Below, one piece after another: positions 18,246 to 62,069 of a DNA stretch of 64,000 bases. This DNA is from Candidatus Freyarchaeum deiterrae. GTDB lineage: Archaea; Asgardarchaeota; Jordiarchaeia; Jordiarchaeales; Jordiarchaeaceae. Both the position numbers and the translations under genes were made by a program. The stretch lies in the NCBI GenBank assembly GCA_037305845.1, contig CP147778.1:1600001-1664000 (forward strand), in the 5' to 3' direction. A model generated the notes under the pieces. It was not told the origin of the DNA. It made no database searches and worked only from the letters and a program-made list of their open reading frames with translations. Positions within the stretch are counted from its first letter, which is position 1. Every line of letters begins with the position of its first letter.

Positions 18246-18383
18246 TGGCGCACGGAGAGGGATTTGAACCCCCGCATCCCGCAAGGGATACTGGCTCTCA
18301 AGGCCTACGCTTGAAAGAGATACCTCATTCAACCAGCGCCGTTTGGTGGCACATTTCATGTGCTTCCGCTTGGCTATCCGTGC
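18246..18383 (-). tRNA. tRNA-Ser(TGA) with two BHB introns (18344-18363 in D-loop; 18305-18333 at 29/30), CCA encoded
   Basis: Acceptor stem GCACGGA/TCCGTGC. After splicing the anticodon arm is CTGGC-CTTGAGA-GCCAG. Long variable arm, GTTCAAATC T-loop, G73. Confidence 0.9.
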
Positions 18384-18513
18384 TTTCTGTTATTTGTTAG
18401 GTGTGATTGGAATATATTTATTTTTAACTTTTCTTGTTCTTTAATAACTTACCGTTTATATTCGAATGTTCGGATATGAAATAGTGTTTATGAATGTTTT
18501 TCTATTTAAAAGT

Positions 18514-19332
18514 TTATTTTTTGCTAAGCTGGTATAGTTCATCGAATATTTCGGGTCTAAGGTCTCGTAGTACTGGTGCTGCTATTCTTGATGCTTTTAA
18601 ATCCGAATAGTCGATTGTTGCGGTTACTAGGTCTTCCTCATCGTATTTTGCTTTTATTATTATTGTGCCGTCTGGGCCAACTATGCGGCTTCCTCCCCAG
18701 AAAATTAAACCGTCTTCAACTCCTACTAGGTTCACGTAAGCCAAAAAAACCGTATTTTCCATGGCTCTGGAGGATATAAATGTTTCAAAGTACCCGGTGC
18801 GGGTGGCAGGTGAAGCTGATATACAAACTATTAATTGTGAACCCATGAGCGTGAGCTGGCGTGCGATTTCTGGGAAGTATATGTCGTAGCAAATCATTAA
18901 ACCGATTTTTCCAATTTCGGTTTCCAGTATTTGTGTCTCGTATCCTTGTCTGAAATATCTTTTTTCTTCGAAAACTAAGTGTGTTGGTAGATATTTCTTA
19001 CGGTACTTTCCAATATACCCTTTTGGCCCCACCATTACTGAAGTGTTATATAAGACGCCTTCTCCGGCTTCTTCTACCATTCCGAATACTACATGTATAT
19101 CATTCTTGTTTGCAGTGTTCTCTATTTTTTTCACCGAGGTTCCAGGGATGCTTTCTGCTAGGGAGTAGTATTGGTCTTTGCATGAGTAGCCGGTGAGTAT
19201 TAGTTCTGGGAAGATTACTAGCTGTGCTTTTTGGCTTGCCGCTTCGGCTATTATTTTATTCATTTTTTGCAGATTCTTTTCTTTGTCTTCGAGTGTTGGT
19301 ACCATTTGTGCTAGGGCTAGCTTTACTTTCAT
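18514..19332 (-). CDS. Nitrilase/carbon-nitrogen hydrolase family amidohydrolase
   Basis: FPEL, YRKKYL and ICYDIYFPE (E-K-C triad). Confidence 0.92.
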   Translation of the reverse strand: MKVKLALAQMVPTLEDKEKNLQKMNKIIAEAASQKAQLVIFPELILTGYSCKDQYYSLAESIPGTSVKKIENTANKNDIHVVFGMVEEAGEGVLYNTSVMVGPKGYIGKYRKKYLPTHLVFEEKRYFRQGYETQILETEIGKIGLMICYDIYFPEIARQLTLMGSQLIVCISASPATRTGYFETFISSRAMENTVFLAYVNLVGVEDGLIFWGGSRIVGPDGTIIIKAKYDEEDLVTATIDYSDLKASRIAAPVLRDLRPEIFDELYQLSKK

Positions 19333-19429
19333 AAGTTCGTCTCCAACAATTTAATATATTTTGGGAATTATAGTAGCTTGATACACTTTTATGTTTATAC
19401 AAGTTATTTCTTATGGAGGCTTTAGTAGA

Positions 19430-20305
19430 ATGAAACTTTCAAAAGAGGTACTTAATATTGAGCCAGAATTTGTTGAGAAGCGTGTTCTTAAATTTATTCG
19501 TGCTCGGGTTACTGATGTGGGTGTTTCAGGAGTGGTTATGGGTCTGAGTGGAGGTATTGATTCTTCGGTTGTTGCTGCTCTTTGTGTAAAAGCTTTGGGC
19601 CCGGAAAGAGTATTAGGGCTGATGTTACCCGAGAAGGATAGCGATCCTAACGATATTAAAGATGCTGTAAAAATAGCTAAGCAGCTTGAAAATCCCTATG
19701 AAGTAGTAGATATAACTTCAATAATTAATGCTTGCCGGGAAACCTATTTAAAGGATGCCTCGGATGCTCCTACAGTAGTGGGAAATGTGAAGGCACGTGT
19801 ACGCATGTTAACACTTTATTGCTATGCAAATAAACTGCATCGCTTGGTCGTTGGTACTGGAAATAAAAGTGAAATATTAATCGGATACAGTTAACGGTTG
19901 ATCACCGTAACTGCCGAAAACTTTACCAAGTACGGCGACGGCGGCTCAGATATATTACCAATAGGTGATCTTTATAAAACCCAAGTTCGTCAACTGGCAG
20001 ATTTCCTAGAAATCCCAAAAGAAATAATTAAGAAAACTCCTACTGCGGGACTTTGGAAGGGTCAAACGGACGAAGCCGAAATTGGTGTTTCATACGATGT
20101 TTTGGACCTGATACTTTATGGTTTAGAACATTGGATGAATGAGTCGGAAATAGCGGAAGAACTCAATGTACCACTTGAAAAAGTGAATAAAATAGTAGAA
20201 ATGTGGAGGAAAAGTGAACATAAAAGAAAAGGCCCGGTTGTCTTTAAATTATCACATAGAACTCCAAGTTTAGACTGGAGGATTCCATTTAACTATTATG
20301 TGTAA
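19430..20305 (+). CDS. nadE: NAD+ synthetase, two exons (19430-19886, 19920-20305)
   Basis: GLSGGIDS, NVKARVRM and PTAGLWKGQTDE. Removing the 33-nt insert restores GTGNKSEILIGYFTKYGDGG. Confidence 0.92.
19887..19919 (+). other. 33-nt BHB-type intron in nadE mRNA
   Basis: TCGG-AT^A-[CAGTT a ACGGT tgatc ACCGT AACTG]-CCGA-AA^A. Contains an in-frame TAA. Confidence 0.85.
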
Positions 20306-20328
20306 AATAATGAAAAGGAGTGAATGAA

Positions 20329-20583
20329 ATGGGGCGTAGAAGAAGGAAAAAGGTTCAAAGAAGACCCGAAAAACGGATACCCACGGTGTTTACCTGCCCC
20401 TCATGTGGAGAGGATAGTGTAAAAGTGGAGATTAAAAAAAACGAGGGATACGCAGTGGTAGGATGTGGTAATCCTAATTGCGGGTTAAAGAAGAATATAA
20501 AAATTGGCAAACTTACGGAACCGGTAGATGCGTATAGCGAATTTGTGGATTCATTTTATGAAGAAGAAAAAGCAGCCAAATAA
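20329..20583 (+). CDS. elf1: Transcription elongation factor Elf1
   Basis: MGRRRRK, FTCPSC, CGxxxCG and EPVDAYSEFVD. Confidence 0.92.
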   Translation: MGRRRRKKVQRRPEKRIPTVFTCPSCGEDSVKVEIKKNEGYAVVGCGNPNCGLKKNIKIGKLTEPVDAYSEFVDSFYEEEKAAK

Positions 20584-20613
20584 GAAAGATATGGGGGCTT
20601 TTATTCTCTTTTT

Positions 20614-21522
20614 CTAGAATAGTAATAGGTAGATAGCAAAGGCACTAATTGCTCCAACGGCTGTTGAAACAAAATTAACGATATTGTTATCAATGGCTTT
20701 GTGTCCTCTCAAGTGGACTGTTATCTCTCCGCAGTGAATATCGTGCTCAGTGATTTTACCGCACACTGGACATTTGTAGAGTGCTTGAATCGTGGCGCCT
20801 ATTACACTATCCGCTGTGCTTCCAACAAATCCTGCTCCTATAGCTATTATCAGTAGTTTTAATCCAGTAGGTAAGCCGAAGCTTAGCGTATCTAACCAGG
20901 GGAACAAACCTAATCCAAGAAGGTTAAAATGCTGCATGAGAAAAGCCATACCACCAGTGAGTAAACCACCCAAGAGTATTGCAAGTTCTCCTAGAGGTGA
21001 AACCCCTCCTGAAGTGCCTGCTACGACTTTTTTCTTTAGGTTTGTTATTAATCTGGGAGGATGAGGATTTAACAAGCCGACCTCAGTGGCTAATGTATCT
21101 GCAGCGGCTGTAGCTACTACCCCCAGGAAGCCAGCAAAGAAAATGTCAAAGGGGCCTGATGGAATGAAAAATAAGAATACTCCTTCCATTACTGCAAGGA
21201 ATGCGGCGAGTCCTCCGTTGGCGATGACGTTTGTCCATGCTCTGGCTCCACCTTTTTCCTGAGCTGCTCCCAATCTTCTTTTTCGTTCATACTTGAATTT
21301 CGTGAACACCGCGGAAGCTAAGAAGAATACCAGTATAACTAAAAACCACGCCCAGTTGCCAAATATCCATACCGCTAAACCCACGACTAGCCCAGCTAAG
21401 AACCCCGAAAAATCGACGGCGTGTAATTTGATCGAGAGAGCTCCTACTCCTCCGACTACCGCAATACCAATTAAGAGATAAATTATATTTGTGAATTCGT
21501 TACTGAACAATGATTCAAACAT
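20614..21522 (-). CDS. DUF92/TMEM19 family membrane protein
   Basis: GARAWTNVIANGG, AADTLATEVG, GTSGGVS, DSVIGATIQ and DNNIVNF. Confidence 0.9.
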   Translation of the reverse strand: MFESLFSNEFTNIIYLLIGIAVVGGVGALSIKLHAVDFSGFLAGLVVGLAVWIFGNWAWFLVILVFFLASAVFTKFKYERKRRLGAAQEKGGARAWTNVIANGGLAAFLAVMEGVFLFFIPSGPFDIFFAGFLGVVATAAADTLATEVGLLNPHPPRLITNLKKKVVAGTSGGVSPLGELAILLGGLLTGGMAFLMQHFNLLGLGLFPWLDTLSFGLPTGLKLLIIAIGAGFVGSTADSVIGATIQALYKCPVCGKITEHDIHCGEITVHLRGHKAIDNNIVNFVSTAVGAISAFAIYLLLF

Positions 21523-21846
21523 TTTTCACGCGCCTCAATGTAAAGCATTTGCAAGGTAACGGCGGTATTTACATCCGGGGTGAATATAAAGTACTAATAT
21601 TTTGCATAGTCTTTTTTGTTTTTAAGATAAAAACGTTTCCCAAGTTCTATGCTTTAAATCGTGTTGTGTCGAAATAATAGTGGTTCTACATAAAAAGCCG
21701 AAAAATATAAGAGCTAATAATAATCCCCTGAACCTTAAAAAATATACAAGTCCATGTTTAAATTTGTACAGCACCGAAGGTGTAAAACTTTATAAAAACT
21801 AGTATAGGTATACTTTTCTAAGATTGATAGGAAGCGATGAAAAGAC

Positions 21847-22548
21847 ATGTCAAAAGTCCTTTGTGTCTCTCCAGCTTATAACGAGGAAAAAGCAGTTTCT
21901 AAAGTAATAGAAGGCGCCTTAAAAAGTACTGATGGAATAATTGTCGTCGATGATGGAAGCATAGATAACACCTTCAAAGAGGCAAGCAAGGCAGGGGCTA
22001 CAGTCGTTCAGCATGATAGAAACAGGGGCAAAGGAGTTGCACTAAAGACTGGTTTTAAAAAGGCTTTAGAGATGAACGCAGATATAGTAGTTGTTTTGGA
22101 TGCAGATGGTCAACATAATCCAGAAGAGATACCCAAACTGCTTAAAACCATGAATCGTGAGAATTCAGATGTAGTGGTGGGATCCAGATTTCTAGGGGAT
22201 ATAAAGGGTATGCCTCGAGCTCGAATTCTAAGCAACACATTAACTACAAGGATTTTACGCTTGTATTTTGGCTTACCTATCACTGATAGTCAAAGTGGTT
22301 ATAGGGCGTATAAAAGACAGCTTTTGGAAAAAGTCGAGTTTTCAGCTACCCGATTTTCTGCCGAAACAGAGATATTGGTTGATGCGTGTAGGAAAGGCTT
22401 TAAAATATCAGAGACAAAAATTCAAACGATTTATGGAGAAGAAAAATCGAAAATGCGAGTTTTTGGAGACACAGTACGTTGGCTTTGGGATGTCGACAAG
22501 CAACTAATTAAAAGTCTGAGCTATAGGCTCTCACATCGAAGCAGATAG
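21847..22548 (+). CDS. GT2 glycosyltransferase (DPM-synthase-like)
   Basis: PAYNEE, VDDGS, DADGQH and DSQSGYR. Confidence 0.92.
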   Translation: MSKVLCVSPAYNEEKAVSKVIEGALKSTDGIIVVDDGSIDNTFKEASKAGATVVQHDRNRGKGVALKTGFKKALEMNADIVVVLDADGQHNPEEIPKLLKTMNRENSDVVVGSRFLGDIKGMPRARILSNTLTTRILRLYFGLPITDSQSGYRAYKRQLLEKVEFSATRFSAETEILVDACRKGFKISETKIQTIYGEEKSKMRVFGDTVRWLWDVDKQLIKSLSYRLSHRSR

Positions 22549-22594
22549 GTGACCTATCATTCACCTATTGAAAGTTTTTAGAGACAAATATTTT

Positions 22595-24895: not shown

Positions 24896-25104
24896 ATTTA
24901 AACCCCGTGCTAATTAGGTTTCATTTATTTTAAATACTTATTGAACAACATATTGAAAAAAATTTTTGTTTTTTACTTATTCCCATCTTTGATTAAATGT
25001 ATAAACGTAATTGTACAGCAAGCCGCCTCTCCTCACCATCTTACAAAGCACCCTATAGATAAAACGAATTTAAATGAATTAGAAATTAATGAAGAATTTA
25101 AAAT

Positions 25105-25833
25105 TCATGAAGGACTAATCTGCCTTAATTCTTTAATCATGTCCTCAACGGATTCTATTTTGGATATTGCCAATGGAATGCCTTCCTTCTTTGCCAGCTC
25201 GATTGCAAGAGGATCAGGATCTACAAGCCCATGTAAAACGATCAGACTTGGTTTGCGCGCATTAATTTTTATGGTGATTAACGGGGAGCGCCCCGTACTA
25301 GCATTTGTGAAAATAACTCCTCTTTCGCTAGATGCATCGTACAACTTAAGAAAAGCATCACCAGAAAGCTCTCTAAAAGCACTAATACTATCAACAACTA
25401 CATATCCAAATAAATTCCTATCTAGAAACTCCTCTCCTACAACACATTCCGCCCGGATAGTAGAACAAAACTGCCGGGCATTTACAGGAGTAGTGAATTC
25501 CCGTATATCTAGAATTATGTCCGTAGGAATCTCAACACTCATTAACCGCCCAAACGCAACAGTTATTTGCCCTCCATTCTTTTCATCGATTGCAAGTAGC
25601 CCCTCAACAAAACGCTTTATAGTTTTAGTTCCAGGAGACTTTCTCCTGCTTCCCTCATAATCACTAATAACTGAAGGAGAAACATCCAAATATTCTGCTA
25701 AAATAATTTGAGGTACATGAAAAAGTTCCCGCCACTTACGCATCATCTTGCCCGGATCATCTGAAAGAGAAACCTCACCTGCCACTCTTCGAGCTAACCT
25801 CTCTGAACTACTTTTATAGATGTTCATATTCAA
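25105..25833 (-). CDS. Conserved archaeal XRE-HTH transcriptional regulator
   Basis: RVAGEV, RKWRELF, SPSVISDYEGSRRKSPG and STGRSPLI. Confidence 0.88.
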   Translation of the reverse strand: MNMNIYKSSSERLARRVAGEVSLSDDPGKMMRKWRELFHVPQIILAEYLDVSPSVISDYEGSRRKSPGTKTIKRFVEGLLAIDEKNGGQITVAFGRLMSVEIPTDIILDIREFTTPVNARQFCSTIRAECVVGEEFLDRNLFGYVVVDSISAFRELSGDAFLKLYDASSERGVIFTNASTGRSPLITIKINARKPSLIVLHGLVDPDPLAIELAKKEGIPLAISKIESVEDMIKELRQISPS

Positions 25834-25967
25834 GTTTCATAGAATTAACGCACATAAATATTTCGGCTATTATCGAAAATTATAAAAATCAGAAATTCGA
25901 AATCCTCAACAAAAATCTTATCTGTTAAAACAACTTAACCCAAACAAAGGATTTTCTAATAAACTAT

Positions 25968-26071
25968 GGGCGGATGGTCTAGAACTCTTCCTATGAGAAG
26001 AGGAGTGGAAAGTTTGGTATGATTCCTGGTTCGGGACCAGGAGGCCGTCGGTTCAAATCCGGCTCCGCCCA
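25968..26071 (+). tRNA. tRNA-Pro(CGG) with a 30-nt intron at 15/16 (25983-26012)
   Basis: Acceptor stem GGGCGGA/TCCGCCC, anticodon arm CTGGT-TCGGG-ACCAG, GTTCAAATC. The intron forms a BHB-like motif. Confidence 0.92.
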
Positions 26072-26214: not shown

Positions 26215-28014
26215 TTGCTGAAATTGGCGGTTAAAGAAAGAATCGGAAAGATAATTAGAGTTACCGGACCTGTAATCGAAGCGGAAGGACTAATCGGAAT
26301 TCAAATGTATGAAGTATGCCGAGTTGGAGACGAAGAATTAATTGGCGAAGTAAACAGAGTTGAAGGTTCAAACGCAACAATTCAGGTTTACGAAGAAACG
26401 ACGGGCTTGAAGCCGGGCGAAAAGGTCGTAGCTACTGGAGCACCTCTATCTGTAGAGCTGGGTCCTGGTCTTATAGGTCAGATTTTTGACGGCATTCAAA
26501 GACCATTACCTATTCTCAAAGAGCAGACTGGAGACTTTATTCATAGGGGAGTGTTAGCAAAAGCTCTGCCTCGAGATAAAAAATGGAAATTTACACCAAC
26601 TGTTGAAGAAGGTGCTACGGTATCTCAGGGAGATATTGTAGGACTCGTACCCGAAACAACTACAGTAACCACTAAAATATTGGTACCGGTAGGCATCAAC
26701 GGTAAGATTACCAGCTTGGTCTCAGAAGGGGAATATACTATAGAGGACACCATAGCGCGTATTAAAACACCCCGTGGAGAGCAGGAAATCACCCTTATGA
26801 CTACTTGGCCTGTACGGCAGGGGCGTCCTTATCTCAGAAAAATGGGATCAACAACCCCCCTGATAACCGGACAGCGTGTAATCGATACTTTCTTCCCCAC
26901 AGCGAAAGGCGGAACAGCAGCAATACCCGGAGGGTTTGGCACAGGAAAAACAGTAATGCTTCACCAGCTTGCAAAATGGGCAGACAGCCAAATAGTAGTA
27001 TACTGTGGTTGTGGTGAAAGGGGTAATGAGATGACGGAGGTTTTGGAAGATTTTCCAAAGCTGGAAGACCCACGCACTGGTGAACCGCTTATGCAGCGTA
27101 CAATACTGATCGCTAACACTTCAAACATGCCCGTAGCCGCTCGAGAAGCCTCTATCTACACTGCGATTACTTTAGCCGAGTATTTCAGGGATCAAGGATA
27201 TGACATTGCGTTAATGGCCGATTCAACTTCGAGATGGGCTGAGGCACTGAGAGAGATAAGTGGAAGACTCGAAGAAATGCCTGGTGAAGAGGGGTATCCA
27301 GCATATTTGGCCTCGCGTCTCGCAGAGTTTTATGAAAGAGCTGGACGCGTTGAAACATTAGGCTCCACAGAGAGCAACCAAAGACTAGGTTCAATAACCG
27401 TTACCGGAGCTGTGAGCCCACCAGGAGGCGACTTTTCCGAGCCTGTTACCTCAAACACACTCCGCGTGGTGAAGGTCTTTTGGGGGCTAGATAAGGATTT
27501 AGCAAGCAGAAGGCATTTCCCAGCGATTAATTGGTTAAATAGTTATAGTTTGTATATTGAAAATCTAAAGGAATGGTTTTCGGCTAATGTTAATAAAGAA
27601 TTTTTAGATTTACGAAGTGAGGCTATGACATTGCTTCAGCGCGAAGATGAACTCCGTGAGGTTGTACAATTAGTTGGCCCTGACGCGCTTCCAGAAAGTG
27701 AGCGTGTGGTGCTTGAGGCAGCCCGTATGATCCGTGAGGATTACTTGATGCAATCAGCTTTGCATCCTGTTGATACTTATTGTAGCCCAGAAAAGTCGTA
27801 TGAGATGCTGAAAATTATTTTGAAATTTTATAATCAAATGAAGAACGCAGTGGAAAAGGGGGTTCCTATCACTTCGATTCAGAAAATGAGTGTACTTAGC
27901 GATATTTCTCGTTTTAAAATTGTGCCCCCAGATGAAGTTGACAAGCGTGTTAATGAAGTGTTTAAAAAGATTGACGCAGAATTCGCATCTCTGACAGTAG
28001 AAAGCCTAGCTTAA
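26215..28014 (+). CDS. atpA: A/V-type ATP synthase subunit A
   Basis: [26 protein letters not shown] and [10 protein letters not shown]. Confidence 0.97.
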
Positions 28015-28730: not shown

Positions 28731-29195
28731 TTAGATATTAGCAACTATATCCTCGAACTCCATTATTAAGTTACAATATCTGCATCTAATTCTTACTGGA
28801 TCCTTGGATATAACTGTAAATGAGGGCTGGGCTGGCTCTCTACTATTTATAATACAGTTAGGATTAACACAGCGGGGAAAACCAGTAATAACGGAGGGTA
28901 GCGATACTCTTTGCTTTTCAACTACCTCGTAGTTACGAATAATATTGATTGTTGCTTTGGGGGAAATCAGTGCTATTTTGTCCACCTCTCGGGGGTCCAA
29001 CTCTCTTCCTTCAATTTTTACTACATCCTTTCTTCCTAATTTACTGCTAGGTGTATTAATCAAAATGCTTATCGTGTATCCTTCTTTACCAGTTAACCCA
29101 AGTATTTTAAAAACGTCCAAAGCGGTACCGGCGGATATATGATCAATTACCGTACCGTCACGAATTTTACGAATCCTAAGCTCCTTTTCGGTCAT
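28731..29195 (-). CDS. pyrI: Aspartate carbamoyltransferase regulatory chain
   Basis: IRDGTVIDHI, KDVVKIE, CVNPNCI and CRYC. Confidence 0.95.
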   Translation of the reverse strand: MTEKELRIRKIRDGTVIDHISAGTALDVFKILGLTGKEGYTISILINTPSSKLGRKDVVKIEGRELDPREVDKIALISPKATINIIRNYEVVEKQRVSLPSVITGFPRCVNPNCIINSREPAQPSFTVISKDPVRIRCRYCNLIMEFEDIVANI

Positions 29196-31534: not shown

Positions 31535-31720
31535 GCGGGGATTTCCAAGTGGTCAAAGCCTGACGGGTGGCCAGAGGAGGCAGACAGGAATCAAATCCCT
31601 GGCCGAGGCTCAGGACCTGCTGGCGCAGAGGCTCTCTGAAAGCTAGAGCCGCGAAAGCCTTCGCGTGTTCGAATAGAAGCATCATAAAGATGCTCCTCGA
31701 GTGTCACGCTCCCCGCACCA
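31535..31720 (+). tRNA. tRNA-Leu(CAG) with four BHB introns (31557-31574, 31584-31607, 31629-31656, 31674-31703), CCA encoded
   Basis: Splicing at canonical BHB cut sites gives an 86-nt cloverleaf: GCGGGGATTTCCAAGTGGTCAAAGGAGGCAGGCTCAGGACCTGCTGGCGCAGGCCTTCGCGTGTTCGAATCACGCTCCCCGCACCA. Confidence 0.9.
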
Positions 31721-36715: not shown

Positions 36716-37954
36716 TTAGCCTTGTGGGAGAGGAGGAACGTAATTAACCGTTTTTTTAATGTGATAATCGTTTTCGAGTATCCCTTTTATCTGTTCAGGA
36801 GGCATGTTGATCTTAATTTGTTTAGTCATGCCGTAACGACCCTCACTCTTGAGCTTAGCAATTATTATTCCGAGCATATCTAACTCTGCGATAAGTCCAC
36901 TGACACGCCTTTCTCCCAATATTTCCAGATTAACAATTTTACAAAGATCCGAATATACATCATAAACCAAACCAGTGGTTATTTTTGAGGATTTATTCCT
37001 GTCTAATAAGTAAATACTATAGAGGACAAGCTTAGATTGAATAGGAAGAGTTGAAATCACTTCCGAAACACGATCAGTCTCTAAAATACTTTGAGCCAGC
37101 TTAACACATTCCTGAGTAATTTTAGTCGCTCCCAGTCTTTCACCCTGCTCACCCGCAACACGCAAAAGATCCAAAGCGCGTCTAGCATCACCATGCTCTC
37201 TAGCCGCAAGAGCAGCGCAAAAATTAATCACGCCCGGTTCATCTAACACACCATCAGCGAAACTCATTTTCGCCCTCTCCCTAAGAATATCCTGCAACTC
37301 CAAGGCCCCATAAGGCGGAAAAACCAGCTCCTCTTCGCCCAAACTACTCAAAACCCGGGGATCCAAATTTTCTTTGAACTTTAGATTATTGGTAATGCCA
37401 ATAATACTGACACAAGCCGCCTTCAAAATAGAATGGTTAATCCTTGTTAAGTCATAAAGTACAGAATCTCCATCTTTATCCACTAATTTATCAACTTCAT
37501 CTAAAACAATAATCATAAGTCCCTTTCTAGAGTCCATTGCCGAGATAAAACGGTTGTAAACCTCGTCAGTAGGCAACCCTGTGAAGGGCACCTCAACACC
37601 AAGATTCTCACACAAATGAGCCAAAACACGATAATTAGTGTTAACAGTACTACAGTTCAAGTAAACATAATTGGGCGTTGAAACACCCATCTCTCTACAC
37701 TTTTCAGCCAAGTGTTTTAAAACATATTTAACCACTGCTGTTTTACCGGTTCCAGTTTTTCCATAAAGGAATACGTTAGACGGAGTTCCACTCTTTAGAG
37801 CAGTGGCTAAAATAATTCCCACTCGCCCTATCTCCTTAACACGATGCGGCAAGTTATCTGGAATATAAGTCGGACGAAGGACCTCCCGATCTTTGAATAT
37901 TCCTGGTCCCGAAAGGTATTTTTCGAATATGGAATCAAGGGGCTTCTCGCTCAT
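36716..37954 (-). CDS. cdc6: Orc1/Cdc6 replication initiator
   Basis: YIPDNLPHR, GKTGTGKT, VLDEVD, GDARRALDLLR and C-terminal wHTH. Confidence 0.96.
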   Translation of the reverse strand: MSEKPLDSIFEKYLSGPGIFKDREVLRPTYIPDNLPHRVKEIGRVGIILATALKSGTPSNVFLYGKTGTGKTAVVKYVLKHLAEKCREMGVSTPNYVYLNCSTVNTNYRVLAHLCENLGVEVPFTGLPTDEVYNRFISAMDSRKGLMIIVLDEVDKLVDKDGDSVLYDLTRINHSILKAACVSIIGITNNLKFKENLDPRVLSSLGEEELVFPPYGALELQDILRERAKMSFADGVLDEPGVINFCAALAAREHGDARRALDLLRVAGEQGERLGATKITQECVKLAQSILETDRVSEVISTLPIQSKLVLYSIYLLDRNKSSKITTGLVYDVYSDLCKIVNLEILGERRVSGLIAELDMLGIIIAKLKSEGRYGMTKQIKINMPPEQIKGILENDYHIKKTVNYVPPLPQG

Positions 37955-38290
37955 GCTTCAACCTCTATTATTTGATGTCTACGATTTAAACTTTAATCTT
38001 GGTATTACACCCGTAGGATACTCCAACCTCTATTAGTTGATGGTTTCCTCAAGTAGCTAAGCAGCTGAATAAGAAACCGTTTCAACACCAAGCTCTTGAG
38101 AAAACAGTCCATCCTCCAGGGAGGGAACTAGCAAAAATTGCTTTGGAAATCAAGGTAATAAAGGTTGCGCAGAGGTATAATAATAAATAATTGAATAACA
38201 GACGCGAAATGATGAAATCATTAAAAGATATCAAGCTAGATATCATAAAAAGTAATCCAAAAAAGGATACCAGAACAGGATATCAACAGT

Positions 38291-38782
38291 TCAAGTAAAC
38301 AGATAATCAAGTTGAGAGACGGCCTCAATCCTATCCTTCACTTTTTCTGTTCTAAGACGGTAACGATACTGTTTACGAGTACCAGTTCTCTCAAGCATAG
38401 ATTCCTTACTCTCGTCATAAATTCTAGCAAGGTAAGTAGACATAGTACTCAGAGGAAGACCCTCTTTAAAGAGATTAACATACTGCTCCTGAACATCATT
38501 AGAAGTAAACCACCCATGCTTGAAACACTTCAATAAAACAATCTCCACCTTCTCCTTCAGAGAGAGACTATCCAAATCAGTATAGGTGGCAGACACAGAA
38601 CTATCGCCAGAAGAACTATTACTAGAAACTTCGGACTCAACTTCAAACGAAGAAAATTTTTTTGATAGCGCCTCTACCAATGAGGCTGCTAAATGGGGTG
38701 GTATATCCCCCTCTAGGGTAAGCGTTACTTTGCGATCTGTTTCCGAATCCGAAATCTCAAACTTGTATTTTCTTTTTGGCAA
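38291..38782 (-). CDS. Winged-helix DNA-binding protein upstream of cdc6
   Basis: C-terminal WFTSNDV...LSTMSTYLARI...LERTG...YRYRL pattern. Confidence 0.75.
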   Translation of the reverse strand: MPKRKYKFEISDSETDRKVTLTLEGDIPPHLAASLVEALSKKFSSFEVESEVSSNSSSGDSSVSATYTDLDSLSLKEKVEIVLLKCFKHGWFTSNDVQEQYVNLFKEGLPLSTMSTYLARIYDESKESMLERTGTRKQYRYRLRTEKVKDRIEAVSQLDYLFT

Positions 38783-39070
38783 GCAGTTCCACCCGAAATT
38801 GAGGTACGGTAATAATTGTATTCACATGTATATATAGTTTATCTTTTAATAAGAAATTTGTGAACCAACCGATAAAAGAATCATAAAGAAAACAATAAAA
38901 CATAGTATAATATTTTACAAAATAAACACGAAATATTGACCAAAATACAAAAAAGAGGAAAAAATAAACCTTAAACAAAAAATAGAGTGCATTTTCCATA
39001 TTTTTTTATATTCACAGATTCACAAAAACACCATACTTAAAAACAATAAAAAAGAATTTTTATTAACAAT

Positions 39071-39090
39071 CTCCACTGGAAACAAAGGGG
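39071..39090 (+). promoter_or_regulatory. ORB element 1
   Basis: CTCCACTGGAAACAAAGGGG matches the TCCA-N-TGGAAA-N4-GGGG consensus. Confidence 0.88.
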
Positions 39091-39494
39091 TAAGTAATAA
39101 AAATGACATTAACACAAAAAGCCGAAATCTTTTCTAAAAATAACCAATTTAAAGCCTTATTTCAACAATCAGATTAACAAATGACGCGTCAACTGTGAAT
39201 GACATTAACACTGGAGATCCCAAGGAAAATTCTACTAATAATCAAAACACCGCCCCAGGAAGGTGAGAAAACAAGTTTCCTGAAGATAATTTCAAGATAT
39301 GATACCAATTTCAGATATCAATATTTGATATCATGGTTTTTTTAAACAATTAAAAAGCTTGGAACACATGTTCTAACAAAAACATCTGGGGCATATCAAA
39401 TTTTAATATGTCTTATACCTAAAAGAAAAATCAAACTGACTATAAAGAGGGACTTGAAATTAATTACATTTATGTATATGACATTCTACCGGGC

Positions 39495-39746
39495 ATGAAA
39501 AGAGATCCAGTGAGGATGAAGTTTTATAAAGAGTTGTTCGGCTTCAATTATTCTTGGGAAACAAAGAACCAAAGAAAAGTTAAATATCAACCCGGTTTGC
39601 TAGACTATGAGGGATGCGAGACGGCGGGTGACAGCGCAATATTAGTTCCTGAAGAGTATGTAGAAGAGTTCAATTCCTTTTTCAGAAAGTATCGGAATAT
39701 TATCTCATGCCGAGTTTTTATAGTACAAGAGGAAGTAAAACTATAG
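39495..39746 (+). CDS. Small hypothetical protein inside the origin, possible ferredoxin-like (Cas2/VapD-like) fold
   Basis: The frame stays open upstream through YIYVYDI, then R.KFYKELFG...GLL...S.ILVP. True start uncertain. Confidence 0.6.
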   Translation: MKRDPVRMKFYKELFGFNYSWETKNQRKVKYQPGLLDYEGCETAGDSAILVPEEYVEEFNSFFRKYRNIISCRVFIVQEEVKL

Positions 39747-39815
39747 AAATTAGAACACGTGTTCTAATTAATTAAAATTCGGCCCTCAAAAGGTAAAAAG
39801 TCAATCAAACCCCTA

Positions 39816-39836
39816 CCCCAACATTTCTACTGGAAA
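39816..39836 (-). promoter_or_regulatory. ORB element 2 (inverted)
   Basis: Minus strand reads TTTCCAGTAGAAATGTTGGGG. Confidence 0.82.
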
Positions 39837-39991
39837 TACTAACTACCCTTAGCATGGTATTTGTTTGTTAGTTAGTAACTACTCCCCCGTTTAAAATTGT
39901 TTCTTTCTATATTTAAACATACTTATCAAAGTTTTTCGATTAACAACTCAAGATTTATTTCCAATAAAATTTGTAATCAACAGTAAACAGT

Positions 39992-40012
39992 TTTCCAGTA
40001 GAAACCAAGGGG
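39992..40012 (+). promoter_or_regulatory. ORB element 3
   Basis: TTTCCAGTAGAAACCAAGGGG. Confidence 0.85.
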
Positions 40013-42099
40013 TGCGTTTTTAAAACTTTCCAAGTCACCTTCCAGGATTAGAGAACCGAACTAAACTTTTCAAAAAATAGTAAACCCATTGGAATAGCTC
40101 TTAGAGTTAATTTATGGTAACTAAATGAGCAGCATACAAATTAAAGAACTGTGGTCAGTAAAGAATGGTTTCATTTCTTGTATTAGTGAACAATGTGAAT
40201 CTTTCTGAAAAAGAAAGTTACGAGTATCAAAAAAGTAATATCTGGATCCGCGTCGTCATTATTTTTTCGAACGATGTTTAACCGGTAACTAATGCTATAC
40301 CTCATCAGCACGCTATCTATTTTTGATTTCGAGAGTAGACATCATTGTCTGATATCAATTTTTAGCATCATTTTTTGATGTCAAGGTATTCTTAGTAGTC
40401 GGATTAGAATTTGTGCTGATAATCAAATCGAGTAGTACAATCTAATTCCTTTGAAATTGGTTGCAAACATGTAGTTCTTGACCGTTCAGGCACTATGAGA
40501 ACCTGAGTTAATTGTCCTGTAATCATAATTCCTGTAATTTAGTTTACTGCAGCTCTCAAAATTATTCTAAATTGTCAAATATTAAAAGTTTAAACCAATG
40601 GAACTAGGTGGATCTGTTTTTATGAATTGGATATATTTGGGGGCTTTTATTATTTCGAGAATATTGAAGATTGTAACTGCTATCCTTTTTACGAAGATCA
40701 AAGCAAGAAAACCTCATCACCTCTCAAAAGGTAGGGAATAAATTTACAGGGTTTAAAATGCAAAAAGGAAAAAAGTATAATGGGACTGGATTACCCTGAA
40801 AGTTGGGAAGATATTAATTTGAGGGTGATATGCCCCGCATTTCTAACTATAATTCAGAAGTGTAGATCCTAACCTTCAATTTTTTGGGGTATTCCAGAAT
40901 AAGCAGACAGCAATATTTGGGGGCATTCCCTCTTTCTATATATTGATTCAAAAACTCGCGTGGGATTGATCCGGAAAAGATAATTTCATTTTCTTACTTT
41001 TATTCGCCCCTATTTAATGTAAATTTGGAAGAGCCGAAATTTTGATATCAAAAGATGTAATCCATAAATGATATTTAATGCAGATATCAGATATCTTAAA
41101 TAGATATCAAAAATGATATCAAGCAGTTAGAGGAATAAGAAATCAGCGGCAGGACCAGGACTTACAAGACGTTGGCCTGCTTTACTTTAATCGAGGTAGA
41201 AAAGCTGAAGAATAAAAACAAAAAGATATCATTGTTATTGCTCTTAATCTGAAAGAATTATCTAGAAAATTTAGAAAAATGTTTACAAAAGTGTATACGG
41301 AGAACCCTCCTCCGTAGGAACCGCGAAAATTTCTTACTATATTAAGGGAGTAATATCTAGATAGTCTATATGGGTTAAAAAACGCATAAAAACCGATATT
41401 TTAACCGAACTCATTGAGATAATAGACAAAAAAGATTTTTAAAAAAGAAAATAATAGAGCTTTTCAACAAAAATAACGAATTTTAATCTTTGAATTTTCG
41501 TAAAATGAATGATATTAAGCGAGGCAATAACCCTTGGTAGTAATTTTTGAAACATAGATTTTGAGAATTAGCCTGGGGCTACTATCAAAATATACCAGCG
41601 CTTGCAAATCTTATCATATCTACGACTGGTTCCTATTTTTTCATTGTTTTTTAAAAAGACCACTGGTAAACCTGTTGCTTGAGTAAAGCTGAAAATTATA
41701 ATTCCAGCAATTGTAACGCTTGGCTTCGGAAATTGCACGCATGGAAAATTCTTTCGGATTAACGGTCAGGGTCTTGATCCCTTTTAGTTTTTAACTTTTT
41801 TATTATTTGAGTTGGTTTTCTACTATTACTGTTCCTCTCGTTTGTAGCTCTTTGATGCATTTTTTTATTACGTCTCGACCCTTTGATATCTCTTTCTGAT
41901 ATCTTTTTCTGAAATCAGTATCTGATTTCGATATCTTTATCAATTATGAGTAATAATAAAATATTTGCCAATTGTTATTTATTCCGTAGCCAGTTGGAAA
42001 TCATTTGAGTATATCATTAAATAATGGTTGAAATGTTATCCAAGGGCGTTGTTTCGTCTTTATTGTATGGTTGAAGCATTTAATTTAGAGGTGATACTC

Positions 42100-43161
42100 A
42101 TGGAAGAAAAGTCTGGTGTTGTTGGTAAGCTTTATCCTGGTGTGGCTGAGGCTAGAAATGCTTATTATGAGCGTGTTGGATGGAAGTGGAATCCTTTTGC
42201 TAAGGTTCGCTTGAGCGACCCTGAACTCTTTGTTGCTTCTACCGATGTGATTTTAGAGATTGATGATTATATTAAGGCGAAGGAAAGGCATCTCCTAATT
42301 ACGAGTGAAGAACCTGGTATGGGTAAGACTATGCTTTTGGAGCTGATTTTTAATGATCTTATTCTGTTGTCTAAGCAGGAGAATAAAGAGTATTTGTTTA
42401 ATCCCATAGTGGTGAATCAGAGTAAATTGTTTGTGCGTCAGATGGGAGAGGTGATAGCGAAGAAGTTGGATATAAAATACACGAGTAAAATGAGTTCTGA
42501 GGATATTTACACGTTGATTAAGAAGGATATTATGACGCGTTTTCTTTTGACGAATTGGATGACTCTGATTTTTATTGATGATTTTGGTGATAATGATTCC
42601 GAGGTTTTTATTAAGCTTAAGGAGTTGGGTGATCTAACCCAGAAAGACGCTAATAATTATCTTTTTAACCAAGAATCTGATTTTAAGAAGTATGCTAGTT
42701 CTGCGAATTATCAATTATCTAAGGACAAATTGAATGAGCTGAAAAAAAACGCTTTGGATCCTGAAAGTAGGGATCAAATGATTTGTATGCTGATACTTAC
42801 TGGAACTAAATCTCATGCGTTGGGGCTAAAGACCGGGGTTCCTCATCTTTATGATCGTTGCTGGGAAATTGAACTCGACAGACTGGATAGAAAAAAGGTT
42901 CGGGAGCTTATTGGAAGAAGATTGTATTGGGCAGGTGGAAAACTGGCGAGTTTTAAAGAGGACAACTTTGAAACTTATCCCTTTGATGAGGACGCCATTT
43001 CTGTTTTGACGGAAAAGGCTCACGGCGTAGGGCGGGACCTACGTCTGCTTTGTAATCAGGCAGTGTTTGTTGCAGCTTCAAACTTGAAGGACGGGCGAAG
43101 CGAAAGGATTACCAAAGAGATAATCGAATCTTTGCCACCGGTAGAAAAATTAGTAGATTAA
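42100..43161 (+). CDS. AAA+ ATPase (ExeA/Cdc6-like architecture)
   Basis: GAGGTGA RBS, N-terminal W.WNPF, Walker A EEPGMGKT, Walker B IFIDD, and YPF...G.GRDL..LC lid. Confidence 0.85.
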   Translation: MEEKSGVVGKLYPGVAEARNAYYERVGWKWNPFAKVRLSDPELFVASTDVILEIDDYIKAKERHLLITSEEPGMGKTMLLELIFNDLILLSKQENKEYLFNPIVVNQSKLFVRQMGEVIAKKLDIKYTSKMSSEDIYTLIKKDIMTRFLLTNWMTLIFIDDFGDNDSEVFIKLKELGDLTQKDANNYLFNQESDFKKYASSANYQLSKDKLNELKKNALDPESRDQMICMLILTGTKSHALGLKTGVPHLYDRCWEIELDRLDRKKVRELIGRRLYWAGGKLASFKEDNFETYPFDEDAISVLTEKAHGVGRDLRLLCNQAVFVAASNLKDGRSERITKEIIESLPPVEKLVD

Positions 43162-47847: not shown

Positions 47848-48026
47848 GCAGGGTTAGCCAAGATTCCACATAGTTTTGTGTGGAATGGGAACGGTACGGC
47901 GGTAGAAACAGCCTCTATTATGAGATGTTGCAGAAGCTCGAGATCACCTATGGCCAATAAAGTGGGTCAGAACGTGAAACTTACTGGCGGGTTTCCGCCG
48001 CGTGAGTTCAAATCTCACACCCTGCG
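47848..48026 (+). tRNA. tRNA-Ser(CGA) with three BHB introns (47863-47891 at 15/16; 47906-47935 at 30/31; 47943-47978 at 37/38)
   Basis: Acceptor stem GCAGGGT/ACCCTGC. Spliced anticodon arm GTAGG-CTCGAGA-CTTAC. Variable stem GGCGG/CCGCC, G73. Confidence 0.9.
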
Positions 48027-51331: not shown

Positions 51332-51462
51332 GCCGAGGTAGCTCAGTTGGTAGAGCGTCAGGCTGTTAACTTGATGGTCAAGAGGTCTGTTTAAGATCTC
51401 TCCACAAGCAGGTCCGAGATGATATTGAAGCGTTTCATATCACGGATATCCTGTCCTCGGCG
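51332..51462 (+). tRNA. tRNA-Asn(GTT) with two BHB introns (51380-51407 at 48/49; 51419-51448 at 59/60)
   Basis: Acceptor stem GCCGAGG/CCTCGGC, anticodon arm TCAGG-CTGTTAA-CTTGA. Spliced T-arm GCAGG-TCCGAGT-CCTGT. Confidence 0.9.
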
Positions 51463-54378: not shown

Positions 54379-54478
54379 ATCTTAATATTAGACATATTTA
54401 AAAATATAACAATTTTTTATTTTAATGAAGGTTAAGACTCTACCAGTAAGAAATACTTTGATTCTTGAAGGGACCGGG

Positions 54479-55639: not shown

Positions 55640-55644
55640 AGTAG

Positions 55645-56364: not shown

Positions 56365-56459
56365 AGATAGGTTAATAAATCAGAATAAATTGAATCTCTT
56401 AGTTTAAAGTATTTCTGTTATACTTGCAGAGGTATCTTAGTGGATTATGGTGCTTTGAC

Positions 56460-58241: not shown

Positions 58242-58843
58242 CTGTACTTTCAACAAAGAGTATAACAGAAAGACTTTTCCACGAAGACCCCTTGAAAAGG
58301 CTGGTTATTACACCAATAATTCGTCACGAAACTCAAATAGCTCACGGTTCAATAGACCTAAGACTGGGAACGGAATTTATCATCACAAAAAGAACTAAAT
58401 ATCACCTTTTGGATCCCCTGCAGGAAGACGTCGAATCACAAATAGAACAATACCAAGATAAAATCTACATAGGGTACAAAGGAAAACTTATCCTCCAACC
58501 CCACCAATTCGTGTTGGGAAGCACCTTAGAATATATAAGATTACCCAACGACCTTCTAGGATATGTAATCGGAAGATCCTCTTGGGGGCGCGTTGGACTA
58601 ATAATTGCTACGGCAACAATGGTGGGACCGGGCTTCGCAGGATCACTAACGCTCGAGCTTGTCAACTTGGGTGAAGCCGATTTAGCATTATACCCCGGAA
58701 CCAGAATAGCCCAATTAGTACTCCATACCTTGGATCAGGAAGATGCTGGATACATTAGCAAACCTGAGTCAAAATATATAGGCGCTGTGGGCCCAGAATT
58801 CAGCAAAATATACACAGACAGGGAATGGAAACTCCTGAGATAG
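58238..58843 (+). CDS. dcd: dCTP deaminase
   Basis: SIDLRLG, GRSSWGRVGL, PGFAGSLTLEL and IAQL. Confidence 0.92.
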   Translation: MTVLSTKSITERLFHEDPLKRLVITPIIRHETQIAHGSIDLRLGTEFIITKRTKYHLLDPLQEDVESQIEQYQDKIYIGYKGKLILQPHQFVLGSTLEYIRLPNDLLGYVIGRSSWGRVGLIIATATMVGPGFAGSLTLELVNLGEADLALYPGTRIAQLVLHTLDQEDAGYISKPESKYIGAVGPEFSKIYTDREWKLLR

Positions 58844-58926
58844 AAAATAACACAAAAACAAGTGGAGAAAAATAGTTAAAGAATTAGGAATGCATTAGAC
58901 AAAAATTAAATGGGAGAAGAACATCC

Positions 58927-59448
58927 CTAACTTTTATTTTCTTCAGATACAAGCTTAACTCTGGAGGGTCTAGGGAGTTTCATGCCACCTATGTGAAGAA
59001 TTTTCTTTAACACTTCTCTGTTCTTTGGTGAATCATTCACCCAAGCACTGCAAATAACCTGGTTTTCATGAACGCGAGCTGCACTGCCAACAGGCTTACC
59101 AAACGCCCGACGCATGCCGTCCTGCAAACGGTCTGCACCCGCAAAAGCCATCATCCTGTTTTCTCTGATAACATGGTATGGTTTTACATGTATGACGAAG
59201 TGGAAGTCATTATTTCCCATCATATTTGTAAGGTTTCTGTTAACTGAGATACGCAAAGCTTCAAGCGCCTTGTGGCTAATTTGGCACCTCTCGTTCATGA
59301 GAAGGTCGCCTCTTAGATTTAATTTTACTTGACGATTACCCATGTCATAGATTCTTATTTTCGATTCTGGACCACCACGGACGTATTCCCTTCTAGTGTA
59401 GGGCGGGCGGTCAATTTCGGTATAGCATTTTGCGGGTCTCTTAGACAT
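58927..59448 (-). CDS. rpl10e: 50S ribosomal protein uL16 (L10e)
   Basis: RPAKCY, PYTRREY and REN.M..AGADRLQDGMRRAFGKP. Confidence 0.96.
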   Translation of the reverse strand: MSKRPAKCYTEIDRPPYTRREYVRGGPESKIRIYDMGNRQVKLNLRGDLLMNERCQISHKALEALRISVNRNLTNMMGNNDFHFVIHVKPYHVIRENRMMAFAGADRLQDGMRRAFGKPVGSAARVHENQVICSAWVNDSPKNREVLKKILHIGGMKLPRPSRVKLVSEENKS

Positions 59449-59621
59449 TTTCTTCACCTCTGTGTAAGTCACAAAAATAAACTTCAGAATCCCATATTAA
59501 TCTTTCCATGTTTCCAATTTTTTCTAGCAAATTCTTTGTAATACTGTAGAACGACTAGTCATTGTAGTATATTTCATTTAAGCATTTTATTAAAAAAAAT
59601 GGGTGGTGAGTGATGTAACTA

Positions 59622-62069
59622 TTAGTCCTCAATCAACTTCCAGAACTCCACATCATCCATAAAGCTCTTACCCACCCGTATACGCGAAGGCCCCGTAACA
59701 TTTTCCAATAATAACTTGCGTTCGATTTTGTCGACCATGCGACGCGAGAACAAAACTGTATCTGGATTTACACTAATGCTGTTAGCTCCTAATCGAACTA
59801 GAAACTCCAAATAATCAGGGTAAACACTGGGGGCCTGTCCACAGATAGAAGTAGTTACTCCGTATTTTTTACATATCTTAATAGTAAATGCTATTGCACG
59901 TAGAACTGCTAAATTACGCTCATCATATATCTCTTGAACACTAGCATCGTTTCTATCTACACCCAGAATTAACATTGTTAAATCGTTAGTACCAAAGCTA
60001 ACTCCATTGATTCCTTCTTGACAGAATTTGTCTATTAATAGTACACAGCTTGGAACCTCAACCATAATCCAGATTTGGAAGTCTGGGTCTACTCCCGGAT
60101 CTAGTCCTTCTTCTTTCATAATCTGTTTTACTTTCCTGAAAACGTCTACTGATTGCACAAAGGGTAGCATTACCCAGAGATTTCTCAGCCCGAATTCTTC
60201 TCTGACTTTTTTTATTGCTCTACATTCAAGTCGAAAAACATCGGGTTCTTTTATGTATCGGAATTGCCCTCTGTATCCTATCATAGGATTGGGGCCTACA
60301 TGCCCCGTTTCTTCCTCGTATTTCCTTCCACCTTCTAAAGCCAAGAATTCATCGGGTTTAAAGTCTAGAAATCTGTACACCACTGGACCTGGGCTGAAGG
60401 CATCGGCGACTTTTCTTACTCCGTCTGCAAATTGGTCTATCATTTCTTGTTCCCCGCCTTCTTCAATGAGTTTTCTTGGGTGTTTCCCTAATGTTATCAT
60501 CAAGTGCTCTGCTCTGAGTAGTCCAACACCATCCGCCTGTGTCTGTTTTGCAACTCTTTCTGCTATTTCAGGCATCGATAAGTTCACGTAGATTTTAGTA
60601 GCTGTAGATGCTGTCGTTGTGCCTACAGGCGCGGCTACGGTTTCTTCTTCCTTTTCGGCTTTTAGAATTCCTCGATATATCAGTCCTTTTCCACCATCAA
60701 CAGTTATTTGCCTCTCGCTTTGTAGAACATTGGTTGCCTTTTTTGTTCCTACTACACAGGGGATTCCGAGTTCTCGGGATACTATTGCCGCGTGGCATGT
60801 GTACCCTCCTTCGTCAGTTACTATCGCGGCTGCTTTTTTCATTACTGGAACCCAATCAGGTGTAGTCATTCTAGTCACTAAAATGTCTCCTTCCTTCAAT
60901 TCTCCTATGTGATTAATGTCTTTAATGACTCTCACCGGGCCAGCTCCTATTCCTGGGGATACGCCTAGTCCCTTAAGTATCATCTCTCGTTCCGTAGTAG
61001 TTTCTGGTTGGTTGGTTTTGGTATTTTTTTTTGCGGGTCCTGTGCTTGAACCATGTACTGTTTCCGGCCTAGATTGAAGTAAGTATATTTCTCCCTTTTG
61101 ATCTACTGCCCACTCGATGTCTTGAGCTGTTTTATAATGTTTTTCGATTTGTTTGCCATACTGGGCTATTCTCTTTATTTCTTCATCTGTTAAGGCTGGG
61201 ATATTTTGTCTTTCCGGAGGGATTTCTAAATGTTCAGTCTTTTCTGTACTAGGGTTTAATGCGTACTCGAGCTTTTTGGTTACAATGTGTTTTTCGACTA
61301 TTTCTAGATTAGATTTGTTCACTACATACGTGTCTGGTGTTACTGCCCCACTTACTACCGCTTCTCCCAGCCCCCAATTAGCTTCTATCATTATTTTTGT
61401 ATTATCCCCCGTTGCTGGGTGAAGTGTAAACATAACTCCCGCTGATTTTGGCTCAACCATAAGTTGAACAGCCACGCTAATGAGGACGTCTTGATGTCTG
61501 AATCCCTTTTCTTCTCTGTAAGTTATGGCTCTTTTTGTAAATAGGCTACTCCAACATTTTTCTACGGCTTCCAGCAACCCTTCTCTATTTTCGTTTAGAA
61601 AGGTCTCCTGCTGTCCTGCAAAAGAAGCGCCTGGCAATAGGGGAAGAATGGTTTAACCCATTACTTTATCCTCTGCGGAGGCGCTCGATCTGACCGCTAC
61701 TAATGGCTCTTTCTCTTTTACTCTCTTAGCTAGTTCGTCATAACTTTTCATTATTGCTTCTTGAATCTCTTCAGGGATTGGTGTAGATTCAATAAGTTGC
61801 CTGATTTTGTTTGATGCTTCTTCAAGTTGTTGGAAGTCTTTAGTGTCGGCTTTTTCAAGTATTTTGAATACTTTATTTTTTATATTTGTGTCTTCTAGGA
61901 ATTTCTTGTAGGCATAGGTAGTAATTGAAAAACCTGGTGGAACTGGGACTTTGGCTTTTGTTATTAGTTCACCCAAATTAGCGTTTTTTCCTCCTACCTT
62001 GGACACGTCTTCCTTTCCTACCTCTTCAAACCATAAGATTAAATCATTTTCATCGCGGCTCATATTCAC
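59622..62069 (-). CDS. ppsA: Phosphoenolpyruvate synthase, two exons (62069-61668, 61637-59622)
   Basis: VGGKNANLGE, GGYTCHAAIVSRE and SFGTNDL. Removing the 30-nt insert restores VRSSASAEDLPGASFAGQ. Confidence 0.93.
61638..61667 (-). other. 30-nt BHB-type intron in ppsA mRNA
   Basis: GCA-GAGG-AT^A-[AAG t AATGG gttaaa CCATT CTT]-CCCC-TA^T-TGC. Contains an in-frame TAA. Confidence 0.83.

Follow-up and report, generated by a model that had tools for sequence, protein, structure and literature searches.

A 64,000-nucleotide stretch of the genome of Candidatus Freyarchaeum deiterrae (the window; bases 1,600,001 to 1,664,000 of one 3,576,204-bp contig) raises the question of whether an archaeon can routinely splice the mRNAs of many protein genes with the enzymes that process its tRNAs. 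A first-pass annotation of the window had described 14 short introns bounded by bulge-helix-bulge (BHB) motifs, 12 in tRNA genes and 2 in protein genes, and had raised the possibility of an Asgard-related host. The host is indeed an Asgard archaeon, whose relatives are filed under Jordarchaeales/Jordarchaeaceae. All 14 inserts proved to be real, in the range and with the sizes described; excision of 12 gave five clean tRNAs, and excision of the other 2 restored nadE and ppsA within single protein domains. Taken together with the evidence below, we put at about 0.9 the probability that Jordarchaeia, and patchily other Asgard archaea, carry out routine multi-gene mRNA splicing on the tRNA machinery.

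The nadE gene (NH3-dependent NAD synthetase) is broken at adjacent positions of one Pfam domain (NAD_synthase 137/138). The spliced product has 280 amino acids and aligns gap-free across the junction with Asgard homologues. A sister species (G002) carries an insert that is also 33 nt long, with the same site and ends and a diverged loop, and nadE exon 2 of the two species differs with pN 0.05 and pS 0.62 (nonsynonymous and synonymous proportions). The insert is absent in congeners G003 to G005 and in every other Asgard copy aligned, and the nadE intron is a recent gain. Two full-length nadE contigs (L243 and L244) were set aside as proof of splicing, as they belong to another species (80% identical).

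The ppsA gene (phosphoenolpyruvate synthase), present as one copy per genome, is split at adjacent positions of PPDK_N (113/115), and its spliced product has 803 amino acids. We found the intron at a single site in 9/9 Jordarchaeales genomes with a match (8 readable, one masked at the site). The inserts measure 30, 29, 29, 29, 29, 20, 19, and 18 nt in these genomes and 28 and 30 nt on metagenome contigs, while the site is empty in the copies compared from outside the order. In each insert, the exon GAGG pairs with the intron 3' end, and the central helix is 4/4 in 7 of the 8 distinct inserts listed. The Glu codon at the site is always GAG in intron-bearing copies and is GAA in 17 of 23 distinct intron-less contexts, among which kin are not independent. 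Within the genus, where synonymous sites are unsaturated, exon dN/dS is 0.04 to 0.11, indicating purifying selection. It had been forecast that standard pipelines would call such genes split or pseudogenes, and the 13 nearest ppsA protein clusters are all represented by N-terminally truncated products of about 670 amino acids, as are the closest rtcB clusters (84% or more identical) by truncated proteins.

A scan of the whole genome for further BHB-bounded inserts in protein genes found more of them, and our partial census holds 24 BHB introns in 22 protein genes, a lower bound. The hosts are an HD hydrolase, alba, hdrC, rtcB, gatE, cbf5, a CxxC protein, porA, nadE, ppsA, a radical SAM gene, tyrS, ahcY (three introns), a RuBisCO-like protein (RLP) gene, kae1, pcm, an endonuclease Q-like gene, a ferredoxin, a LeuC-like gene, and three unnamed genes. 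Host names were taken from recognised motifs, without a family search, except for nadE, ppsA, rtcB, cbf5, ahcY, kae1, tyrS, and pcm. The census drew on the shape of the BHB, on whether excision rescued the reading frame, and on homology to 1.55 Mb of congener G003, to 0.4 Mb of Odinarchaeum, and to fetched loci. For 19 of the 24 introns there is homology support: either a homologue lacks the interruption, or a relative has an intron with another interior at that site. After excision, nadE, ppsA, rtcB, cbf5, kae1, pcm, and ahcY match uninterrupted homologues without gaps, and the splice-junction peptides can be predicted (e.g., SAEDLPGASFAGQQETF). No intact second copy of rtcB, cbf5, kae1, or ppsA was found in the genome.

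These introns are 18 to 56 nt long, with one of 191 nt, and the central helix is 4/4 in 22 of 24 when G-U pairs are counted. An A occupies position 1 of the 5' bulge in 21/24 and position 2 of the 3' bulge in 22/24, a bias to be read knowing that one scan filtered on A and the homology scan did not. Introns start with A in 19/24 and mostly end in AA. In all those found, a stop or a frameshift blocks translation, partly by search design. The two introns of the window do share a GGAT^A context, a length that is a multiple of 3, and an in-frame TAA, as the first-pass annotation had pointed out; these are not rules. GGAT^A occurs in 3/24, lengths fall into classes 0/1/2 modulo 3 as 9/7/8, and relatives carry the ppsA intron at 29, 28, 20, or 19 nt. 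The suggestion of genome-wide mRNA splicing by EndA stands in part. Many genes are affected (24 inserts in 22 genes), two have exact intron-less contigs, and EndA and RtcB are present, but the sites are sparse, about two dozen, and all are confined to the stretch from 0.99 to 2.64 Mb, which also holds nearly all tRNA genes. From genome size, near 1% of genes probably carry such introns.

BHB shape alone was not enriched, with about 6,000 hits per strand genome-wide, the same as in a mirror control. The reading-frame-rescue scan gave 22 strict hits versus 0, 10, and 8 in three controls. A motif-free check of indels against close relatives (950 kb of alignment) returned hairpins with at least 3/4 central pairs for 8/8 indels of 27 to 33 nt and BHB-like inserts for 0/9 indels of 15 to 22 nt. 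Two of the eight are inserts held by G003 and absent here; therefore, turnover runs in both directions. These two BHB-like inserts (31 to 33 nt; L072 and L035) correspond to genome positions 1673692 and 1970006. Most other frame-rescue candidates were rejected as gene junctions or long weak hairpins. Hits shared with G003 at 1152664, 1339649, 3145768, and 578428 were gene junctions, their interiors being as conserved as their flanks, and a hit at 1538447, unrelated to alba, was rejected as a gene junction too. Candidates in the window at 28822, 29588, and 47135 were weak and were not accepted. A ychF insert and a 59-nt RLP insert were not located by the census filters and are not counted. A codon-model filter was too strict, as it missed both known introns, and raw tblastn gap lists were too noisy.

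The best evidence for excision comes from contigs of a relative. One member of a truncated-ppsA cluster has 802 amino acids and lies on a contig of run SRR28530378; contigs L229 and L230 (runs SRR28530378 and SRR28530383) are identical over 15,894 nt save for the 30-nt intron. For rtcB, a 485-amino-acid member lies on a contig of run SRR28530379 and was found in two samples; contigs L236 and L237 (runs SRR28530379 and SRR28530383) are identical over 4,161 nt save for a 29-nt BHB intron. In both genes, the intron-less junction is the BHB-predicted cut, with zero possible slide and no direct repeat. Runs SRR28530382 and 83 have split forms of ppsA and rtcB, and runs 78 and 79 carry the intron-less forms. 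None of the papers searched mentions the SRR285303xx runs. This is the pattern that paired DNA and RNA libraries would yield, and we infer that the intron-less contigs are cDNA.

The EndA type and the RNA ligase RtcB, whose identification the first-pass annotation had proposed, could both be assigned. Two EndA paralogues are encoded, in the regions of genome positions 1921033 and 1733162, one of them without the catalytic His. In the catalytic one, Tyr, His, and Lys are retained; its nearest match is the catalytic chain of the Aeropyrum (alpha-beta)2 enzyme (3p1z_B/3ajv_B), in an alignment that spans the N-terminal loop. The N-terminal loop of Aeropyrum-type EndA gives the enzyme broad specificity. 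The host thus appears to possess an (alpha-beta)2-type EndA able to take relaxed motifs, plus an RNA ligase. The single rtcB gene is split here and across the genus and is whole in the sister family. EndA and RtcB would presumably do the cutting and joining. In the proposed mechanism, four exon bases before the 5' cut would pair in the precursor RNA with four bases near the intron 3' end, two 3-nt bulges would flank this central helix, and the intron interior would form a short hairpin. The (alpha-beta)2 EndA would cut after the second base of each bulge, and RtcB would join the exons, one machinery serving the tRNAs and about two dozen mRNA sites, that of rtcB itself included.

By the sequence tests applied, the introns can be assigned to the archaeal BHB intron class. 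They are far too short for a group I or group II ribozyme core and, at 18 to 56 nt (one 191 nt), for a LAGLIDADG-type nuclease. The GT...AG ends of spliceosomal introns were not found, nor was the pattern of transposed tRNA-intron families of the Thermoproteales type, with near-identical introns at several loci. It is highly probable that the inserts are genuine BHB introns spliced by the tRNA machinery, and splicing of many mRNAs is very probably needed by the cell. The idea that introns had spread from tRNAs into coding genes was not borne out: the similarity of mRNA introns to tRNA loci did not rise above that of shuffles (all p 0.08 or more), and no further genomic copy of any of these introns was seen. 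Their arrival appears not to have been by detectable copying from tRNA introns.

Comparison of intron positions in relatives, also proposed at the outset, gave an order-wide site for ppsA, a site for nadE only here and in G002, and a cbf5 site filled in 11/11 Jordarchaeales. The cbf5 intron (27 to 41 nt, central helix 4/4) interrupts the catalytic Asp codon after its first base; it is present in two other Asgard genomes and absent from 17. A spliced crenarchaeal cbf5 intron occupies the identical site (PMC2738675). An insert occupies one kae1 site in this genome, G003, G006, and Odinarchaeum; for pcm, the interrupted copies are those of this genome, G003, G006, and Atabeyarchaeia. At the third ahcY site, the insert is 191 nt long here and 34 nt in Atabeyarchaeia, and G003 has none. 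For kae1, pcm, ahcY, and tyrS, sites are common across species and interiors have diverged; a tyrS parse for G006 and G011 was a pattern artefact and was ignored. This patchiness would fit old gains with losses, repeated gain at a few BHB-capable sites, or past homing.

Several observations accompany these sites. Beyond Jordarchaeia, mRNA introns were seen in Odinarchaeum (kae1; G011, L298) and in Atabeyarchaeia (ahcY, pcm, and cbf5; G021, L290, L316, and L283). The third ahcY intron (L292, genome 1876203-1876393, minus strand), by far the longest, has a very stable fold (-61 kcal/mol) and might contain a nested intron, a small RNA, or a mobile-element remnant. The first 17 nt of the cbf5 intron (L280, genome 1483430-1483446) match exactly, in antisense, an unrelated coding sequence at 1700971-1700987, probably by chance (E 0.003 for one of 24 queries).

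Several considerations weigh against multi-gene splicing. Five of the 24 introns (HD hydrolase, radical SAM, CxxC, RLP, and the 2494680 insert) have fold and motif as their only support. Some central helices are imperfect, among them that of the ppsA intron here (3/4) and that of one tRNA-Ser D-loop intron (2/4). The contigs with exact excision come from another species at about 80% nucleotide identity, and they could be cDNA or DNA. No intron-less copy of nadE was found for this genome, and nadE has paralogues and could be dispensable. We considered whether the intron-less contigs are DNA alleles left by precise intron loss in part of the population, in which case the inserts would still be introns, with spliced RNA not directly viewed. 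The contigs do extend over divergent genes and intergenic DNA, with ends that coincide between the two forms, as in DNA assemblies, and intron presence varies within the genus (nadE, ahcY, and others). However, two unlinked genes would both have lost an intron exactly, with nothing else differing in 20 kb, and the runs sort consistently for both genes. We consider DNA alleles improbable. Exact loss at BHB cuts would most simply need a spliced RNA template, as proposed for cbf5 too (PMC2738675), so that even DNA alleles in two genes would imply splicing. Unspliced expression, whether as two polypeptides (stop and re-initiation) or through a frameshift, read-through, or ribosomes that bypass the hairpin, is very unlikely. 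In its favor, ppsA exon 2 begins with TTG here and is called as a protein in databases, and an in-frame start codon lies close to the junction for six other introns. Yet 17/24 have no start codon near exon 2, ppsA exon 2 of G009 begins with CTG, orthologous inserts occupy all three length classes, which fits no single recoding rule, and the cbf5 insert splits a catalytic codon; the exact intron-less contigs of ppsA and rtcB largely refute it. We give almost no credence to assembly errors or pseudogenes. The genome is metagenome-assembled and nadE has paralogues, but the nadE insert is unchanged in the four independent Logan assemblies that reach the site and is therefore not an assembly error. 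In ppsA, cbf5, and kae1, the insert is found again in other species, with compensating stems, and this conservation refutes both readings. Exons are under purifying selection, and for essential genes there is no spare copy.

Granted splicing, the introns might be under selection as regulatory gates, through which RNA-processing and metabolic genes would be expressed according to EndA and RtcB activity and rtcB would form a feedback loop. Among the hosts are several genes that act on RNA (rtcB, cbf5, kae1, gatE, tyrS, and alba), some introns are kept across an order or more, and a regulatory role has been proposed for the cbf5 intron (PMC2738675). A separate search found no homology-backed stop-free in-frame insert among 704 testable candidates, which is suggestive only. 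On the other hand, introns come and go within the genus (nadE, ahcY-1, ahcY-3, and alba), conserved genes are those that part with introns least readily and reveal them most readily, and the excess of stop codons is weak (four independent cases) and in part a product of the search. We regard the gate as doubtful and the regulatory reading as speculation; we infer instead that the introns are mostly tolerated passengers rather than switches, which would persist because they lie in invariant motifs, where only exact loss is viable. Equally unlikely is the fuller reading in which multi-gene splicing, with micro-introns gained and lost in dozens of core genes, is also a shared post-transcriptional gate; if true, it would amount to prokaryotic intron proliferation in coding genes without spliceosome or ribozyme. 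A somewhat better, still tentative case can be made that the micro-introns are remnants of mobile homing-endonuclease BHB introns that were aimed at conserved DNA motifs and later lost the nuclease. The same site is patchily filled in distant lineages (cbf5 in Crenarchaeota and three Asgard groups; ahcY-3 here and in Atabeyarchaeia, not in G003; kae1 also in Odinarchaeum), and deletion derivatives of rRNA introns are known (PMC2738675). Nevertheless, none of these introns holds a nuclease-sized open reading frame (ORF), the longest being 191 nt, and ancient gain with repeated loss or repeated gain at a few BHB-capable sites fits the patchiness as well.

The tRNA half of the finding is an already published phenomenon, in this very genome. 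Introns occur in 92 to 95% of tRNA genes of these genomes (PMC11291895), and our coordinates match the Freyarchaeia Supplementary Data 4 of that paper exactly (Ser-TGA 1618383-1618246, Pro-CGG 1625968, and Asn-GTT 1651332). A 2026 preprint (bioRxiv 10.64898/2026.10.13.758758) reports a motif-free tRNA intron census, BHB enrichment, and (alpha-beta)2 EndA in most genomes, and found no general arrival or copying route. Both papers remark that annotation overlooks some intron-bearing tRNAs. Our sole addition is Leu-CAG and Ser-CGA, seven introns in all, which are missing from the published table because of their four and three introns. On the unspliced window, ARAGORN called 2 genes only, one of them misnamed; after excision, it called all five (Table 1). 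The BHB motif (4-bp central helix and two 3-nt bulges) is canonical or relaxed in these introns. With cut sites of our choosing, the central helix reaches at least 3/4 in 10 of the 12, with two at 4/4 Watson-Crick or G-U and several relaxed. tRNA was the only Rfam family found in the window.

Table 1. Intron-bearing genes of the window; positions count from its first base.
Feature	Position	Strand	Basis and remarks
tRNA-Ser(TGA), two introns: 18364-18343 (22 nt, D-loop), 18333-18305 (29 nt, anticodon stem)	18246..18383	-	ARAGORN after excision; gene and intron starts same in Supplementary Data 4 of PMC11291895
nadE exon 1	19430..19886	+	Pfam NAD_synthase positions 4-137
nadE BHB intron, 33 nt, inside motif GY/FTKYGDG	19887..19919	+	central helix UCGG/CCGA (4/4); in-frame TAA
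nadE exon 2	19920..20305	+	Pfam NAD_synthase positions 138-242; no start codon near junction
tRNA-Pro(CGG), one intron: 25984-26011 (28 nt)	25968..26071	+	ARAGORN after excision; in PMC11291895 table
tRNA-Leu(CAG), four introns: 31557-31574 (18 nt), 31584-31607 (24 nt), 31629-31656 (28 nt), 31674-31703 (30 nt)	31535..31720	+	ARAGORN after excision; not in published table
tRNA-Ser(CGA), three introns: 47863-47891 (29 nt), 47906-47935 (30 nt), 47943-47978 (36 nt, canonical 37/38)	47848..48026	+	ARAGORN after excision; not in published table
tRNA-Asn(GTT), two introns: 51380-51407 (28 nt), 51419-51448 (30 nt)	51332..51462	+	ARAGORN after excision; in PMC11291895 table
ppsA exon 2, 671 codons	59622..61637	-	Pfam; in databases as truncated protein
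ppsA BHB intron, 30 nt, between AED and LPGASFAG	61638..61667	-	outer helix GCA/UGC (3 bp), central helix GAGG/CCCC, bulges AU^A and UA^U
ppsA exon 1, 132 codons	61668..62063	-	Pfam PPDK_N positions 2-113

Elsewhere in the window, a cdc6/orc1 gene (36716-37954) adjoins a gene-poor, AT-rich stretch (39050-40010) with at least three origin-recognition-box-like elements near 39072, 39830, and 39995, two of which end in a G-run. This is probably a replication origin, and the intron-bearing core region is centred there. Just upstream of cdc6 (37950-38060), two or three copies of a short repeat with caacctctatta could be further origin elements or a degenerate repeat array. A gene for A/V-type ATP synthase subunit A (26215-28014) directly follows tRNA-Pro. 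Among those tested, ORFs of 80 to 377 amino acids at 24941-25833, 38291-38999, and 42028-43161 have no Pfam match; the pair at 38291-38999 overlaps and was covered for introns by the genome-wide scans only.

Archaeal coding sequences are treated as intron-free save cbf5. If our reading is true, many essential Asgard genes sit in databases as truncated proteins or split ORFs, as seen for ppsA and rtcB across the family, and such deposits would affect metabolic reconstructions and the phylogenomic markers of the lineages on which the placement of eukaryotes relies. Several questions would become testable as well: by what means EndA distinguishes true introns among thousands of mRNA folds that look BHB-like by chance, by what route short introns arrive, given that close relatives differ at single sites, and whether the need of rtcB for RtcB forms a feedback loop. 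By itself, the finding makes no link to spliceosomal or IRE1 splicing.

The first-pass annotation had drawn such a link to HAC1/XBP1. There, a short mRNA intron is cut and joined by proteins only, with IRE1 cutting at two stem-loops under stress regulation. Here, the fold is one BHB, a predicted EndA substrate, with no site or sequence in common with HAC1/XBP1; EndA is not known to be related to IRE1. RtcB is the ligase of XBP1-type splicing in animals (PMC8718801), and the link is limited to this shared ligase, with the nadE and ppsA introns confined to one lineage. We therefore treat the likeness as an analogy rather than a shown homology, and any link beyond the ligase as speculation.

Closer parallels lie within the archaea. 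The BHB intron in the 5' untranslated region of Haloferax volcanii HVO_1309 is likewise an mRNA substrate of EndA, in vivo and in vitro (PMC7714728), but it is a single case in an untranslated leader and breaks no frame. Archaeal rRNA homing-endonuclease BHB introns share the motif, conserved target sites, and short deletion derivatives (PMC2738675); in contrast, our introns have no nuclease ORF and their targets are mRNAs. The two papers on Freyarchaeia/Atabeyarchaeia tRNA introns (PMC11291895; bioRxiv 10.64898/2026.10.13.758758) do not analyse protein genes for introns, and no report of mRNA introns in Asgard archaea was found in the literature searched, which left out most subscription journals. 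In print, the BHB class thus includes one case in a 5' untranslated region (PMC7714728) and one in a coding sequence (PMC2738675). The latter, the cbf5 pre-mRNA intron of Crenarchaeota (Desulfurococcales and Sulfolobales; 16 to 44 nt), is the nearest known system: like the introns described here, it is BHB-bounded and ORF-less, sits in an invariant motif, varies in length, and is gained and lost by lineage. Its splicing was shown by experiment, whereas our evidence is exact intron-less contigs, cDNA or DNA. Unlike that one gene, about 22 are interrupted here, ahcY three times and the gene of the splicing ligase among them. What is new is the scale, about two dozen coding sites in essential genes that turn over within a genus.

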